From IMG/VR virus record IMGVR_UViG_2917855067_000001, positions 1 to 10,271 of that record: a stretch of DNA of 10,271 bases; one strand, 5' to 3'. The notes beneath the pieces were generated by a model. That model worked only from the letters and a program-made list of their open reading frames with translations. It had not been told where the DNA came from and did no database searches. The position numbers were made by a program, and so were the translations under genes. Position 1 is the first letter of the stretch, and each line of letters begins with the position of its first letter. Below are positions 4,024 to 9,572 of the stretch, one piece after another. Source of the DNA: a virus. Taxonomy: Duplodnaviria > Heunggongvirae > Uroviricota > Caudoviricetes.

Positions 4024-4831
4024 GTTAGCTGATTACAGGCCTCAACTGGAGGTCGTGGAGCATCGCGTGGCAGATACCGAAGATGGTTTCATGCGCGTTG
4101 CTAACGAGATTACCGACAGTCTGCTGATGGCTGATTTAACCGTCCGGCAGTTGAAGGTGATGCTCGCTATCATGCGCAAGACATACGGATTCAATAAGCC
4201 GATGGATCGACTCACAAACACGCAGATAGCAGCCATGACAGGTATTCATCACACTCATGTTTGCGCTGCCAAGCGCCAGCTTATTGAGCGTAAATTCCTC
4301 ATTGCTGATGGCGTGAAAATCGGAGTGAACAAGGTGGTTTCTCAGTGGATTAGCCAGGACAGCTTAACATTAGCTAAAACAGCTAATAAAACATTAGCCA
4401 AGTCGGCTAATGGGTATAAGCCAAGTCAGCTAAACACAAAAGACAATATACAAAAGACAATAAATACAAATACCCCCTTACCCCCTAACGGGGGCGGCGA
4501 TGGGCAGGTTAAACCTGAACGTCGCAAGGCAGAACGAATCGACTACGAATCCTTCCTGAACGCCTACAACACCGAAGTCGGTGACAGACTGCCACACGCT
4601 GTTGCGGTCAACGAGAAACGCAAACGTCGCCTGAAGAAAATCATCCCGCAACTGAAAACGCCAAACGTGGACGGTTTCAGAGCGTATGTCAGGGCGTTTG
4701 TGCATCAGGCCAAGCCGTTTTACTTCGGAGACAACGACACGGGCTGGACGGCCGATTTTGATTACCTGCTGAGGGAAGACTCGTTAACGGGAGTACGGGA
4801 AGGGAAGTTTGCAGACAGGGGGATTGCATGA
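4010..4831 (+). CDS. Replication initiator, lambda O-like (P22 gene 18-type)
   Basis: 273-aa ORF with an N-terminal domain resembling lambda O (..[37 protein letters not shown]..). Iteron-like repeats and an AT-rich tract lie inside the gene, as for ori-lambda. AGGAG ribosome-binding site upstream. Stop overlaps the helicase start (ATGA). Confidence 0.85.
4350..4475. repeat. Origin-like iteron array plus AT-rich tract inside the O-like gene
   Basis: Four dyad-symmetric repeats of 17-18 bp spaced about 20-24 bp apart (TTAGCCAGGACAGCTTA, TTAGCTAAAACAGCTAA, TTAGCCAAGTCGGCTAA, TAAGCCAAGTCAGCTAA), followed by the A/T-rich run ACACAAAAGACAATATACAAAAGACAATAAATACAAATA and then a G/C palindrome CCCCC..GGGGG. 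Confidence 0.6.
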
Positions 4832-6204
4832 AACAGGATATCGAAGCGAGCGTTATCGGTGGCCTGCTGATTGGTGGATTAACACCAACCGCCAGCGACG
4901 TTCTGGCAACGCTGGAGCCGGAAGCGTTTTCAATTCCGCTCTACCGGAAAGCCTTCGAGGTTATCCGCAAGCAGGCGAGAAACAGAAACCTAATCGACGC
5001 GCTGATGGTTGCCGAGGCGTGCGGAGAGGAGCATTTCACGTCAATCCTGATGACCAGCAAAAACTGCCCGAGTGCCGCAAACCTGAAGGGATATGCCGGA
5101 ATGGTCGCGGATAACTATCACCGCCGTCTGGTGCTGGAAATCATGGATGAAATGCGTGAACCAATCCAAAGCGGAACCATCGACGCATCGAGTCAGGCGA
5201 TGGATGAACTTGTAAAACGGCTCTCAGCCATCAGAAAGCCCCGTGACGAGGTTAAACCTGTACGGTTAGGGGAAATCATCACTGACTACACTGACACGCT
5301 TGACAGGCGTCTGAGGAACGGAGAAGAGTCAGATACCCTGAAGACCGGAATCGAAGAACTTGACGCCATCACCGGAGGGATGAACGCGGAAGACCTGGTG
5401 ATTATCGCCGCTCGTCCTGGTATGGGGAAAACCGAACTGGCGCTGAAGATTGCCGAAGGCGTTGCAAGCCGCGTTATTCCTGGTTCTGACGTCCGGCGCG
5501 GAGTATTGATTTTCTCGATGGAAATGAGCGCATTGCAGATTGCAGAGCGAAGCATTGCCAACGCCGGGAGGATGTCGGTTAGCGTGCTGCGAAATCCTGC
5601 ATCGATGGATGACGAAGGCTGGGCGCGCGTTGCTAACGGCATGAGTCAGCTTGCAGATTTGGATGTATGGGTAGTCGATGCCTCGCGGTTATCTGTCGAA
5701 GAAATTCGCTCAATCGCAGAACGACACAAACAGGAAAATCCAAACCTGTCACTCATCATGGCGGATTATCTTGGCCTGATTGAGAAGCCGAAAGCAGACC
5801 GCAACGACCTCGCAATTGCTCACATCTCAGGAAGCCTTAAGGCGATGGCGAAAGACCTGAAAACGCCTGTTATCTCCCTAAGTCAGCTTTCACGCGATGT
5901 TGAGAAGCGACCAAACAAACGCCCGACAAACGCAGATTTGCGTGATTCAGGAAGCATTGAGCAGGACGCAGACTCAATCATCATGCTCTATCGGGAAGCG
6001 GTATATGACGAGAACAGTAGCGCCGCGCCATTTGCTGAAATCATCGTGACGAAAAACCGTTTTGGCTCACTTGGTACGGTTTACCAGCGGTTCTGTAACG
6101 GACACTTTGTTGCATGTGACCAGGATGAAGCCAGACAGATTTGCACAGCATCAAATGCACCTGCTGCGCGTGGCAGACGATATGCACAAGGGGCTGACGT
6201 ATGA
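4828..6204 (+). CDS. Replicative DNA helicase, DnaB family (P22 gene 12-type)
   Basis: 458-aa ORF with DnaB-like N-terminal domain and a Walker A motif ([15 protein letters not shown]). Translationally coupled to the O-like gene. Confidence 0.9.
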
Positions 6205-6281
6205 CCATCTACATCACTGAGCTAATAACAGGTCTGCTGGTAATCGCAGGCCTTTTTATTTGGGGGAGAGGGAAGTCATGA
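6201..6281 (+). CDS. Putative small hydrophobic peptide (26 aa)
   Basis: ATG 6201 overlaps the helicase stop (ATGA). Product [26 protein letters not shown] is a single hydrophobic helix. Its stop overlaps the ninB ATG. Not in the ORF track because it is below the length cutoff. Confidence 0.3.
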
Positions 6282-6766
6282 AAAAGCTAACCTTTGAAAT
6301 TCGATCTCCAGCACATCAGCAAAACGCTATTCACGCAGTACAGCAAATCCTTCCAGACCCAACCAAACCAATCGTAGTAACCATTCAGGAACGCAACCGC
6401 AGCTTAGACCAGAATCGAAAGCTTTGGGCTTGCCTTGGTGACGTCTCTCGTCAGGTTGAATGGCATGGTCGCTGGCTGGATGCAGAAAGCTGGAAGTGCG
6501 TTTTTACAGCAGCATTAAAGCAGCAGGACGTTGCTGAGGTAACAGGCGCAACAGTAACCAGCATAAATCAGGCTGCGGCTAAAATGGCGCGGGCAGGAAT
6601 CTTAGTCATTGATGGTAAGGTCTGGCGAACGGTGTATTACCGGTTCGCTACCAGGGAAGAACGGGAAGGAAAGGTGAGCACGAATCTGATTTTCAAGGAG
6701 TGTCGCCAGAGTGCCGCGATGAAGCGGGTTTTATTTGTTTATGCGGCGGGGGGAGGAAATCAGTGA
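6278..6766 (+). CDS. ninB: NinB/Orf-family protein (recombination mediator) with divergent C-terminal half
   Basis: From ATG 6278 (Shine-Dalgarno GGGGGAGAGGG upstream), the first ~87 residues [85 protein letters not shown] match recalled lambda NinB. The remainder (AEVTGATVTSINQAAAKMARAG...) diverges from lambda but keeps a family-like pattern. Confidence 0.75.
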   Translation: MKKLTFEIRSPAHQQNAIHAVQQILPDPTKPIVVTIQERNRSLDQNRKLWACLGDVSRQVEWHGRWLDAESWKCVFTAALKQQDVAEVTGATVTSINQAAAKMARAGILVIDGKVWRTVYYRFATREEREGKVSTNLIFKECRQSAAMKRVLFVYAAGGGNQ

Positions 6767-6798: not shown

Positions 6799-6861
6799 CT
6801 GTGCGTTGCCGCAAAATCGGCACACGGGATTGGCGTCCCGGATAAGGTAATCGCGACTACT

Positions 6862-6887
6862 ACACGCCGCGAGCGTGTTTTTTATTG
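6862..6887 (+). terminator. Rho-independent terminator candidate
   Basis: Hairpin ACACGC-cgcga-GCGTGT (6862..6878) followed by TTTTTTATTG. Confidence 0.55.
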
Positions 6888-6923
6888 TCGTAAGCATACG
6901 CACATCTGAATTATGGTGGGGCG

Positions 6924-7017
6924 TGTAGGGCCGACTTCGGTCGGGCCGGTTGATTACCCCGGTTACGCCAACCCTACATGTCTCACCACCAAACTGATTG
7001 GCGTCAGCGGTGGTGGT
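6924..7017. repeat. Cluster of GC-rich palindromes (structured element upstream of the Bro-N gene)
   Basis: TGTAGGG (6924..6930) pairs with CCCTACA (6972..6978). Inside: a hairpin GGCC-GAC-ttcg-GTC-g-GGCC with a UUCG-type loop (6929..6947), then GGTTG...CAACC (6948..6973), then CCACCACC-loop-GGTGGTGG (about 6984..7016). Nature unknown. Confidence 0.35.
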
Positions 7018-7041: not shown

Positions 7042-7647
7042 ATGAGCACACAACTAGTCTTTCATCAAACAAAATTCCATCCTGTTAAACACAACAACAG
7101 TATCTGGCTTACTGCCGTTGAGATTGCTCAAGCTCTCGGATATAAAAAATCTGATGCCGTAACTCAGATCTACGATCGAAATTCCGATGAATTTAGGGCA
7201 GATATGACTGAGACCCTCAATTTGAGTGTCTCAGGGAACTACCAGAAAACAATACGCATTTTCTCCCTCCGTGGTGCCCATTTGATCGCTATGTTCGCCC
7301 GCACTCCTGTAGCCAAAGAATTCCGCCGCTGGGTTCTGGATATTCTCGATCGAGAAGTTCAACAATCCCCAATCACAAAACAATTCACTGATAACGAACT
7401 TTGCACACTCGCCTGGTTATGGCGAGCAGGGGATGTGATGTTAACCGCCTGCCAGAATGTTACTCCACTTCTTCAGGTTGCGGAGCATCGCGAAGCCGGT
7501 CGCTTTACTTCTATTGAGCAAGAATATCCCCAGATACTACATAAGGCGCGCGAAATCCTTGCCAGAGAAACGGCACATGTAAGATTCCAGCCGTGGCAGG
7601 ATGATAAGTGGAGCCGAGTATTGCCGCATTTGCGTTCTGAGCAGTAG
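7042..7647 (+). CDS. Bro-N domain protein (antirepressor / Roi-like family)
   Basis: 201-aa ORF. The N-terminal ~105 aa carry Bro-N-like motifs (..SIWLTAVEIAQALGY.. and ..IRIFSLRGAHLIAMFARTPVAKEFRRWVLDIL..). The C-terminal half is unassigned. Confidence 0.7.
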   Translation: MSTQLVFHQTKFHPVKHNNSIWLTAVEIAQALGYKKSDAVTQIYDRNSDEFRADMTETLNLSVSGNYQKTIRIFSLRGAHLIAMFARTPVAKEFRRWVLDILDREVQQSPITKQFTDNELCTLAWLWRAGDVMLTACQNVTPLLQVAEHREAGRFTSIEQEYPQILHKAREILARETAHVRFQPWQDDKWSRVLPHLRSEQ

Positions 7648-7828
7648 CAATAAAGTTTCCGGTGAGAAATGTCACCAGCATTTTGTTATGAAACGGGTAT
7701 TGGCGGTATATGGGGGCGGGGCTTTAGTTATTAGGTGTCGAGAATTAATTGTTTGTAGCAATATAAAAAGGAGCGCTTAAGTCCGTTTATTTTTTTTAAG
7801 CTTCATATACATAGTGGATAAAAATGAG

Positions 7829-7853
7829 AACCACCCGCTGAACGGGTGGTTTT
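7829..7853. terminator. Terminator hairpin between convergent genes (possibly bidirectional)
   Basis: AACCACCCG-ctgaa-CGGGTGGTT followed by TTTT on the plus strand; the complement is followed by a T-rich tract on the minus strand. It lies between the Bro-N gene end (7647) and the orphan gene end (7928). Confidence 0.6.
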
Positions 7854-7927
7854 GCGCAAGTTAAATTTTATAATTTCAGTGAATCTTTACGCTGTAATAA
7901 TGCAAATGATAGTTGAAAAAAACACAA

Positions 7928-8605
7928 TCAGTCGATGGATTCTCCGTAGGATGCAACTGCCTGAGCGACGCAAAAACGATCAATACACTCTATTTCTCCA
8001 TAATCACGCAGGCAATAATAAGTATTATTGTCTTTATCAAAAGCGTAAATGCTACAAATACCCTCAAGCTCACAACTTGCGTCCCATCCACTATTAGATA
8101 ACGTGCCCCATTCCTGGTAAAGCCCTGCGTTAACTTCTCGATTGATAATATGCGGTCCACTATAGTTATCATAATCGTAACTATAGATGTCACGTGCCTC
8201 AGGAAAATTCCCGTTCATGTTTTCAATCCACGGTAAAATATCTTTAACTGAGTTATAAAGTTCAATGCTGTATTTGAAAAAACGCTTCACAATAAAAACA
8301 TAGATGCCGGCAGATTTGTTTGTTGATTTATCAGTGGCGAAAATGACAAAAATCTTCCCAACGCACTTTTCATCTACGCCCGGAAAAGTTACTGTGCCAT
8401 CCTGGCTAACCGCCAGAACATTATTGTCTGCATTAGTGCTACAGGTCCATTTTACCTTGTCATTATTAATAGGGTCATTATCAATGACCATCTTGAAGGT
8501 TGCTCCTGGGAACAAACTGTTAGGGAAACAGTAACCACTCTCCATATCATTTTTAATATCATAGATATGGCTATCAACTAACACGCCTGTAATTTTGCTC
8601 ATCAT
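7928..8605 (-). CDS. Orphan AT-rich hypothetical protein (moron candidate), opposite strand to the phage early operon
   Basis: Long open frame on the minus strand within visibly AT-rich DNA, where long chance ORFs are unlikely. Probable start is ATG-ATG at 8605/8602 with AGAGAG upstream, giving MMSKITGVLVDSHIYDIKNDMESGYCFPNSLFPG... of about 225 aa (the track's TTG start at 8650 is less likely). Cys- and Asp/Asn/Tyr-rich C-terminal part, no obvious signal peptide. No family recognised. Confidence 0.6.
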   Translation of the reverse strand: MMSKITGVLVDSHIYDIKNDMESGYCFPNSLFPGATFKMVIDNDPINNDKVKWTCSTNADNNVLAVSQDGTVTFPGVDEKCVGKIFVIFATDKSTNKSAGIYVFIVKRFFKYSIELYNSVKDILPWIENMNGNFPEARDIYSYDYDNYSGPHIINREVNAGLYQEWGTLSNSGWDASCELEGICSIYAFDKDNNTYYCLRDYGEIECIDRFCVAQAVASYGESID

Positions 8606-9018
8606 TGAACTCTCTTTGTTTGTTAAATAAAAAGTTTTATTCCTGAACAACGGAACACGCTGATATTAATGCAGCCAATGAATTGTTGTTGTTATTTGGA
8701 GGTTATATAGTGGTATGAATGTTATTATGCGATGTCTCTGAGTGATGGGGTAAGGATTATATGATTCGCTTTTGAGATTTACCTATGTCAGGCGTTGCTG
8801 TTCATGTTCGTCCCCGTTGTCAGTCTTCTTAGTCTGAGCTAATGTCATCATCAATGGGTTATCAGTTTTCTCTGAAGTTATATAATTAATTGAGCGCCAT
8901 AGCACCATGGGGCATTGTTGAATTTCATCTTCAATTGATTTTCCATAATCAACTCGCCATAATCATGTCATCGGAGCCTGAACACCTCCGGTGACTTCTG
9001 CGCTAAACGGGGACGTTT

Positions 9019-9120
9019 ATGCGCACACACAATCTAAACTCTCTTCTCCCTTCACAGATGCAGAAATGCACCTGCGATTTTTTGCATCCAACGTTTGACC
9101 TCTGCGGAGGTGAAGCGTGA
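9019..9120 (+). CDS. ylcH: Small ORF, ylcH-like (33 aa)
   Basis: ATG 9019 to TGA 9118..9120 gives [33 protein letters not shown]. Its stop overlaps the ybcN GTG start, the position ylcH holds upstream of ybcN in DLP12. Sequence match to ylcH is not verified. Confidence 0.35.
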
Positions 9121-9572
9121 ACCTCCCACAAGACGGCATCAAATTACATCGCGGCAACTTCACCGCTATCGGTCAGCAGATCCAGCCTTATCTGGAGGAT
9201 GGCAAATGCTTTCGCATGGTGCTTAAACCGTGGCGCGAGAGACGCAGTCTTTCCCAGAATGCACTCAGCCACATGTGGTACAGCGAAATCAGTGAGTACC
9301 TCATCAGCAGGGGTAAAACGTTCGCTACTGCAGTATGGGTAAAAGATGCACTCAAACACACATACCTCGGTTATGAAACCAAGGACCTGGTTGATGTCGT
9401 AACCGGCGAAATCACTACGATCCAGTCGTTACGCCATACCTCCGATCTTGATACCGGAGAGATGTATGTCTTCCTGTGTAAGGTTGAAGCCTGGGCGATG
9501 AATATTGGCTGCCACCTGACTATTCCGCAGAGCTGCGAGTTCCAGCTGCTGCGCGACAAGCAGGAGGCGTAA
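9117..9572 (+). CDS. ybcN: YbcN-like protein (DLP12-type; Orf/NinB-family, reported base-flipping protein)
   Basis: 151-aa ORF from GTG 9117 with GGAGG 6 nt upstream: [67 protein letters not shown]..., matching recalled E. coli YbcN. Confidence 0.85.

Follow-up and report, generated by a model that had tools for sequence, protein, structure and literature searches.

A gene-free gap in an Escherichia lambdoid prophage as a probable composite of cargo-gene flank, IS1-family relic, filler and structured leader

The locus and the make-up of the gap

Our analysis concerned a stretch of some 400 bp without genes (8606-9018) in the early-right region of a lambdoid prophage. The window, by which we mean the whole stretch of DNA that was analysed, is the complete 10,271-bp contig PDIE01000014.1 (GCA_004745295.1), from an Escherichia outside the set of complete E. 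coli genomes with which it was compared. The repressor and cro-like genes come first; after the antirepressor gene the order is an orphan gene on the opposite strand, the gap, and then ylcH, ybcN, ninE, ybcO and rusA (Table 1). An earlier note, made from the letters alone, had described the gap as free of genes, AT-rich and marked by recurring TTATATA-type motifs, and had suggested that it might hold the promoter and operator of the orphan gene, a decayed gene or a non-coding RNA. The gap is indeed free of open reading frames (ORFs): none of 60 aa or more lies on either strand between the start of the orphan gene and the ylcH ATG (9019), and all that is present is one of 41 aa (8783-8908, minus strand) and an unconserved TTG extension of the orphan ORF to 8650. 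The AT-richness is real for 8606-8934, with a guanine-plus-cytosine (GC) fraction of 0.368, but does not extend to 8935-9018, where it is 0.476.

The sharpest feature of the gap is a break in homology near its right end. In a megablast comparison of 8500-9120 with 5426 complete E. coli genomes and 50,697 phage records, homology was found only from 8935 rightward, in 2853 of the 5426 genomes and in phages 82, HK639, HK225 and others. A blastn search of 7650-8934 against the same two collections gave no match, and both flanks of this segment are common in E. coli and phage records. Since nothing matches to the left of 8935 and nothing matches 7650-8934, the stretch from the orphan gene to 8934 is an insertion relative to the common prophages. 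Its low GC points the same way: the orphan gene (0.391) and its 3' flank (0.357) share it with the gap, so that it is a property of the whole inserted unit (0.36-0.39, against 0.47-0.52 around it) and not of the gap alone.

We consider it likely that the gap arose by the insertion of a cargo gene, a so-called moron, as an AT-rich unit of about 7650-8934, and, with similar confidence, that the gap itself is a composite spacer in which four unrelated pieces lie end to end between two divergent units. Morons are autonomous cargo units of lambdoid phages, such as bor and lom of lambda, and were defined for HK97 and HK022. Like them, the unit is a single gene of lower GC and opposite strand, set between two genes that adjoin each other in related phages, with a terminator of its own downstream and an upstream region that travels with the gene. 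Unlike them, it has no recognisable canonical sigma-70 promoter, it is bordered by a relic of an insertion sequence (IS) of the IS1 family, and it is not confined to prophages, being found on a small plasmid and in islands as well. The insertion would have taken place just upstream of the ylcH-ybcN-ninE-ybcO-rusA module of a lambdoid prophage in a cryptic-clade Escherichia. The odd gene-free stretch would thus be explained by a cargo insertion, an IS relic and a module boundary, and the question as first posed matters little: the gap is mostly ordinary, and the structured leader at its right end is its only, and mildly, novel part. Of this account, the boundaries, the pattern of conservation, the homology to the IS and the covariation of the base pairs are established; activity of the promoters, start sites of transcription and a regulatory part for the hairpins are inferred.

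Table 1. Features of the gap and its surroundings, with positions in the window.
Feature	Position	Strand	Evidence or remark
Conserved 5' flank of the orphan gene: putative promoter and leader of ~93 nt	8603-8727	minus	alignments
Shine-Dalgarno sequence AAGAGAG	8616-8610	minus	
Small hairpin	8657-8638	minus	
TTAATATC	8669-8662	minus	
AAATAAC	8697-8691	minus	
-10-like TATAAC	8707-8702	minus	first motif of the earlier note, GTTATATA, on the other strand
IS1-family left-end relic	8728-8833	plus	degenerate terminal inverted repeat and first 15 insA codons; blastn, nhmmer
insA start of the relic	ATG 8785, stop 8830-8832	plus	
Filler	8834-8934	none	no homolog outside this prophage lineage
Promoter-like element TTGATT-17-CATAAT	8935-8963 (TTGATT 8935-8940, CATAAT 8958-8963)	plus	promoter scan, 9/12 matches
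Palindrome TTGATT-N6-AATCAA	8935-8952	plus	-35 hexamer is one arm
Hairpin 1	8967-8995	plus	10-bp stem, 9-nt loop CCUGAACAC with conserved core UGAAC
Hairpin 2	8999-9025	plus	GGGA loop is part of the ylcH Shine-Dalgarno sequence; ylcH start codon (9019-9021) in 3' arm
ylcH/orf33, 33 aa	9019-9120	plus	stop overlaps the ybcN GTG start
Hairpin 3, then T-run	~9057-9088	plus	inside ylcH
Hairpin 4	~9091-9118	plus	inside ylcH; pairs with the ybcN Shine-Dalgarno sequence
Orphan gene, 224 aa from conserved second ATG	7928-8602	minus	AlphaFold, Foldseek, homolog alignments
Intrinsic-terminator-like hairpin AACCACCCGTTCAGCGGGTGGTT and T-run	7829-7851	minus	terminator scan; conserved in chromosomal relatives
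DnaB-like replication gene	4828-6204		
NinB-family ORF	6260-6766		
isrK RNA (RF01394)	6807-6883		61 bits; Rfam threshold reached
C4 antisense RNA (RF01695)	6909-6993		74 bits; Rfam threshold reached
Antirepressor gene	7042-7647		

The conserved block upstream of ylcH

The left edge of the homology falls exactly on the -35 hexamer of the promoter-like element (8935), whose two hexamers and 17-bp spacer agree with those of a sigma-70 promoter (spacer of 16-18 bp). Among 108 distinct sequences (viral contigs, phages and E. coli), TTGATT, AATCAA and CCATAAT hardly change, and the six central bases of the palindrome are free to vary; conserved arms around a variable core are typical of a site bound by a dimer, which the palindrome may be. 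The consensus for FNR has a gap of 4 nt between its half-sites, and an FNR site at 8935-8952 was rejected because the gap between TTGAT and ATCAA is 8 nt. The direct repeat CCATAATCA to which the earlier note had pointed does exist, in exact copies at 8943-8951 and 8957-8965. The relatives keep the second copy, which contains the -10 hexamer, and of the first only AATCA, its CCAT falling in the variable spacer; because the first copy is thus only partly conserved, the repeat as such is incidental.

Downstream of the promoter-like element the block encodes a structured RNA. The RNA of 8960-9030 folds into two hairpins with a z-score of -5.6, and the pairing of both is preserved through extensive changes of sequence. 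Hairpin 1 occurs in 34 sequence variants with at least five unrelated stems, and 8-11 of its 11 positions are paired in all of them but one, that of HK225, which pairs in a shifted register. Hairpin 2 comes in four stem families, all of which pair (TAAACG/CGTTTA, ATTTAAG/CTTAAAT, TTTGAG/CTCAAAG and ATATGATT/AATTATAT) and all of which share the GGGA loop. When covariation was counted over 35 distinct variants, aligned on the loop without gaps, 91% of the cells were paired, against 27-45% for slid partners, and 14 of the 17 pairs had changed on both sides; the observed value was reached by none of 500 shuffles on any of five measures. U.G is the commonest pair at one stem position and G.U is frequent elsewhere; since neither could pair on the opposite strand, the structure is that of the plus-strand, rightward RNA. 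The core UGAAC is kept in the hairpin 1 loop of true relatives when the loop is not fixed in the search pattern.

The fold continues into ylcH (z=-5.8 for 8967-9125), where hairpins 3 and 4 are predicted. Pairing with the ybcN Shine-Dalgarno sequence recurs, as read from the alignment, in three sequence versions among the relatives, and the terminator scan gave a weak candidate at 9059-9086. The earlier suggestion of a non-coding RNA in the gap therefore holds for its last 84 nt, as a covarying structured RNA, but this RNA corresponds to no Rfam family, is oriented away from the orphan gene and goes with ylcH-ybcN. Rfam 15, searched at gathering thresholds, found only isrK and C4 in the whole window; in 7600-9150 nothing scored above 20 bits, and a search at E<=10 gave no match in the gap. 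Hairpins 1 and 2 are not intrinsic terminators, being followed by UUCUGCGC and ACACAC and by no U-run. A resemblance of hairpin 1 to boxB is at most a possible lead: boxB has a loop of 5 nt, against 9 nt here, and nut sites lie elsewhere in the genome.

Two described systems come close to this block. The region upstream of orf33 in phage 82 (X92588) is 92.5% identical to 8935-9120 of the window, and the putative -35, -10, "possible regulator-binding site" (an inverted repeat that is our hairpin 1), ribosome-binding site and orf33 annotated there map one-to-one on the window; whereas that record only annotates putative features, here this inverted repeat and a second one covary as plus-strand RNA hairpins in more than 100 contigs. 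The terminator tR2 of lambda, between ren and ninB, has the same position immediately upstream of a NinB/Orf-family gene and is likewise a structured RNA, in the pR transcript; it is a GC-rich hairpin with a U-run, whereas hairpins 1 and 2 lack the U-run and stand beside a promoter-like site and a small ORF. Within that ORF, ylcH, about 45 nt (TCACAGATGCAGAAATGCACCTGCGATTTT) hardly vary in nucleotide sequence.

In the model suggested by this arrangement, a sigma-70-like promoter overlapped by the palindrome would be followed in the RNA by two hairpins, the second of which would enclose the start codon of ylcH in its stem and have part of the ribosome-binding site of that gene in its loop, and the hairpins inside ylcH would cover the ribosome-binding site of ybcN. 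Because the hairpins enclose these starting points of translation, the downstream recombination genes are most likely gated by a structured, translationally coupled leader, in which the role of ylcH may be that of a coupling or leader ORF more than that of a gene for a protein. The listing of ylcH as a unit of its own in a K-12 transcriptome (PMC8910356) speaks for this reading. A more far-reaching version, which we put forward as tentative, is that 8935-9018 and ylcH together form an undescribed, very widespread cis-regulatory RNA with its own promoter, a UGAAC loop recognised by a factor of phage or host and a cascade of hairpins hiding a start codon and Shine-Dalgarno sequences, which would decide the expression of ybcN-rusA-Q and possibly also yield a short independent RNA. 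Such a two-hairpin leader, covarying, present in about half of the complete E. coli genomes and absent from Rfam, would matter because it lies upstream of ybcN, rusA and the antiterminator gene Q, and could thus bear on the silence of rusA in K-12 and on the leakage of prophage gene expression.

Several points weigh against this regulatory model. The promoter-like site upstream of ylcH scores only 9/12, and genetic work indicates that the rusA operon of K-12 needs a promoter supplied by an IS for adequate expression (PMC4118853); the site may therefore have little activity or be under repression, or transcripts from it may end prematurely. For the covariation count, sequences were gathered by a search pattern in which loop and linker were fixed, so that the invariance of these parts is to some extent built in, although it was checked with the loop left free. 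Our search of the literature found no functional study of ylcH or of a ybcN promoter.

Another reading, with which the poor expression of rusA in K-12 would agree, is that the RNA from 8935 onward is not simply the 5' end of the nin operon mRNA but an independent small RNA or dual-function small mRNA running from TTGATT/CATAAT to about 9088 and acting in trans or as an attenuator. The conserved hexamers around a variable spacer, the covarying hairpins with the conserved core of the hairpin 1 loop, the terminator-like hairpin and T-run at 9059-9086 and the position of tR2 in lambda all agree with such an RNA, as does the same K-12 transcriptome, in which ylcH is a separately changing transcript and a unit of its own (PMC8910356). 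Its ends, however, are predicted only, the hairpin before the T-run is weak, with 5 pairs in the scan, and has its 5' arm replaced in some relatives, no Rfam family corresponds to it, and the conserved ylcH frame, overlapping the start of ybcN, fits ordinary translational coupling; we therefore regard this as an unlikely alternative to the coupled leader.

The orphan gene flank, the IS1-family relic and the filler

At its other end the gap belongs to the orphan gene. A block of about 125-165 nt upstream travels with this gene through prophage, chromosomal (ybcH/emrE), island and plasmid contexts, beyond which the contexts are unrelated. In two comparisons with relatives, the identity to the window at -100..-1 is close to that of the coding sequence (0.79 vs 0.83 and 0.80 vs 0.82), intermediate at -165..-101 and at background beyond about -165. 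The most distant paralogs keep T-TATA-A(C/T) at 8709-8702, AAATAAC and TAAT/CATC at 8668-8662 invariant or nearly so, and even at 43% amino-acid identity between paralogs TATA(A/T)(C/T) and AAATAA do not vary. By its conservation TATAAC resembles a -10 element, from which transcription would begin in AAATAAC. The flank would then most likely be a weak or activator-dependent promoter centred on TATAAC, with the orphan transcript starting some 93 nt upstream of the ATG and carrying an A/U-rich leader with a small hairpin and a Shine-Dalgarno sequence. The promoter that the earlier note had placed in the gap thus probably lies in the proximal 125 nt or so, with their conserved -10-like element, and not in the rest of the gap.

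Speaking against such a promoter, a canonical sigma-70 -35/-10 pair was found on the minus strand upstream of the orphan gene neither in the window nor in three relatives. For the leader as a whole no fold is supported: RNAalifold gave no consensus fold for the orphan leader in the relatives, the single-sequence fold has a z-score of -1.7, and the covariation of the named fold is marginal, being reached by 39-47 of 500 shuffles. For these reasons we claim as structure only the one small hairpin, which stands at the same place in the relatives with three different compensated stem versions. A check for a fourU-type thermometer showed ACUUUUU paired with AAAGAGAG in the minimum-free-energy fold (z=-1.7); this helix is 84% paired in the relatives, and the whole structure does not rise above shuffles at the strict level.

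The control region abuts a piece of an IS1-family element. When 7650-8940 was compared with plasmids by blastn, the sole match was 8758-8832, which is 80% identical (E=1e-7) to the beginning of a transposase gene of the IS1 family, and an nhmmer profile built from three copies of the plasmid element matched 8727-8833 on the plus strand at model positions 4-107 (E=1.5e-13). Aligned to these three copies, the relic matches from the terminal repeat (GGTGATGCCTCT... vs TGCGATGTCTCT...) through the start of insA, including its start codon and CPRC motif, and then has MSGVAVHVRPRCQSS-stop in place of the MASVTVHCPRCQSAQ... of the IS. Homology to IS1-family elements is thus recognisable in the left terminal repeat region and at the insA start, but only about 106 nt are left, insA stops after 15 codons and the profile found no match in the window for the rest of the element, including its right end: it is a relic and not an element. 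An internally deleted IS, with a right end sought by eye in 8880-8907, was dropped because the profile search had found no right end. Some 20 nt of this terminal repeat (TAATGCCTCTGAGTAGTGG) survive in the nearest relatives of the orphan gene, equally far from the gene, and the junction between IS and flank is therefore ancestral to that clade. In our model the relic would be an inert stump, and the IS was probably involved in the rearrangements that moved the gene.

IS1 insertions are known to create promoters, and TATAAT/CATAAT stands exactly at the IS1 repeat junction in the window and its closest relatives, which would allow a hybrid promoter, with the conserved (C/T)ATAAT at 8729-8724 straddling the end of the IS, to drive the orphan gene. 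The -35 sequence 17 bp upstream in the IS end is poor, as read from the sequence, and gave no match in the scan, and distant family members without the IS end nevertheless keep TATAAC/TATAAT and the leader. We consider such a hybrid promoter improbable, and prefer TATAAC as the centre of the putative promoter.

The remaining piece, 8834-8934, would be filler: it is matched only within the same prophage lineage, at 99-100% identity. On its plus strand lies a promoter-like match, TTATCA-16-TATAAT (8859-8886), in a scan that gave 8 matches where 4.7 were expected. A duplicated promoter, suggested by collinear short repeats at 8699-8741 and 8859-8884, was rejected and treated as chance, the order of the repeats being inverted and the second copy occurring in no relative.

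With the pieces delimited, the recurring motifs can be placed. They are present, but their recurrence does not go beyond chance in the local composition. Exact copies of GTTATATA number two, at 8702-8709 and 8877-8884, and a further site at 8755-8762 is imperfect, with only GATTATAT. Two copies are uncommon relative to shuffles of the whole window (0.2 expected; 5 of 200 shuffles), and the first lies in the invariant upstream block of the gene family, which might favour taking the whole 400 bp as a single regulatory region of the orphan gene with these motifs as its operators. Yet some exact repeated 8-mer appears in 75% of simulated sequences of the same length and local composition; because such repeats are common and this one was noticed after the fact, its recurrence is not significant and gives no evidence of function. 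The three copies, moreover, sit in pieces of different origin, the first in the conserved flank, the second (8752-8766 in the earlier note) in the relic, where it is the TATAAT just within the IS end, and the third in the filler; only the first is kept in relatives, and beyond about -165 the contexts are unrelated. These comparative data largely refute a single regulatory region, which we regard as very unlikely, and the operator built from recurring motifs that the earlier note had envisaged falls with it.

Remnants of DLP12 genes (ybcL and ybcM, or ybcK and emrE) in the gap are hardly conceivable: the position is equivalent, ybcM ending 116 bp before ylcH in K-12, and a chromosomal copy of the orphan gene adjoins an emrE-like gene in other Escherichia species, but comparison of 7648-9018 with the K-12 emrE-ybcM region by blastn (word size 7) and tblastx detected no trace of ybcK, ybcL, ybcM or emrE and matched only the shared 84-nt ylcH leader, and the sole relic present is of the IS1 family. 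The decayed gene foreseen in the earlier note does exist, then, as an IS1-family left end and not as ybcL or ybcM.

The orphan protein family and other features of the window

The start codon of the orphan gene that is conserved is the second ATG (8602), the first (8605) being lost in relatives. An AlphaFold model of the protein, built on the family alignment, has a mean predicted local distance difference test score (pLDDT) of 86, and Foldseek matched it to the D4-D5 tip of Yersinia invasin (1cwv; E=6.5e-12, template modelling score 0.72) and also to the intimin tip (1f00). The protein is thus predicted with confidence to have an invasin/intimin tip-like fold, with an immunoglobulin (Ig)-like and a lectin-like domain. 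A weak match to Invasin_D4 in Pfam was the sole result of profile searches, PHROGs and PADLOC giving none. The likeness extends to the superdomain only: the orphan protein is free-standing, has 10-18% identity to the structures, and is not an inverse autotransporter, since its 224 aa comprise the tip fold alone, with no beta-barrel and no stalk of Ig repeats. It carries no signal peptide, and its N-terminus, MSKITGVLVDSH, is not hydrophobic.

Homologs amount to 24 at the cluster level, all from Escherichia and with 43-98% identity, and a genome may hold several paralogs, up to four. Conservation is strong in the N-terminal, Ig-like half, and the C-terminal, lectin-like half is highly variable. 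An identical protein is encoded by prophages that differ in their replication modules, each time between the antirepressor gene and ylcH; chromosomal relatives lie between ybcH (DUF4434) and an emrE-like gene, and other settings are an island adjoining toxin-antitoxin genes and a small ColE1-type plasmid bearing Rop. A mobile, fast-diverging family of free-standing invasin-tip-like proteins, confined to Escherichia and equipped with a conserved 5' leader, would be a candidate for host-interaction or defence cargo.

The 3' end of the cargo unit is marked by the hairpin at 7829-7851, a GC-rich stem of 10 bp with a T-run, 77 nt 3' of the orphan stop. It is one of two terminator-like hairpins between the convergent antirepressor and orphan genes, the other lying at 7659-7678 and reading on both strands, whereas this one reads on the minus strand only. 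About 330 nt of the orphan 3' flank are conserved with the chromosomal relatives.

Some individual relatives deserve mention. In a second prophage (L009), the 330 nt upstream of the gene are 98-99% identical to the window, the coding sequence 90% and the protein 84%, and the differences are concentrated in the C-terminal domain, which suggests recombination or diversifying selection there. Contigs of ColE1-like plasmids (L014-L016) carry a homolog with 52% identity, next to a 731-aa protein with a weak glycoside-hydrolase-19 match, a DUF4087 protein and, directly upstream, an ORF of 81 aa; to judge by these neighbours the plasmid arrangement could be a bacteriocin-like cassette. In E. ruysiae and relatives (L010-L012, L018, L020), the homolog stands between nfrA-ybcH and the emrE-like gene by folD, at the site that DLP12 occupies in K-12. 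The 3' flank of these chromosomal homologs has kept its match to the end of the window's antirepressor gene, and the chromosomal homolog therefore looks like the last remnant of a similar prophage.

Elsewhere in the window, isrK and C4 lie directly 5' of the antirepressor gene, which is the known arrangement for immunity and antirepressor control. The prophage also has two genes of the NinB/Orf family, at 6260-6766 and 9117-9572. The match of the first to Pfam NinB is limited to residues 9-112 of 168, and in many genomes its homology to E. coli prophages is interrupted near 6533, suggesting that this copy is chimeric or truncated.

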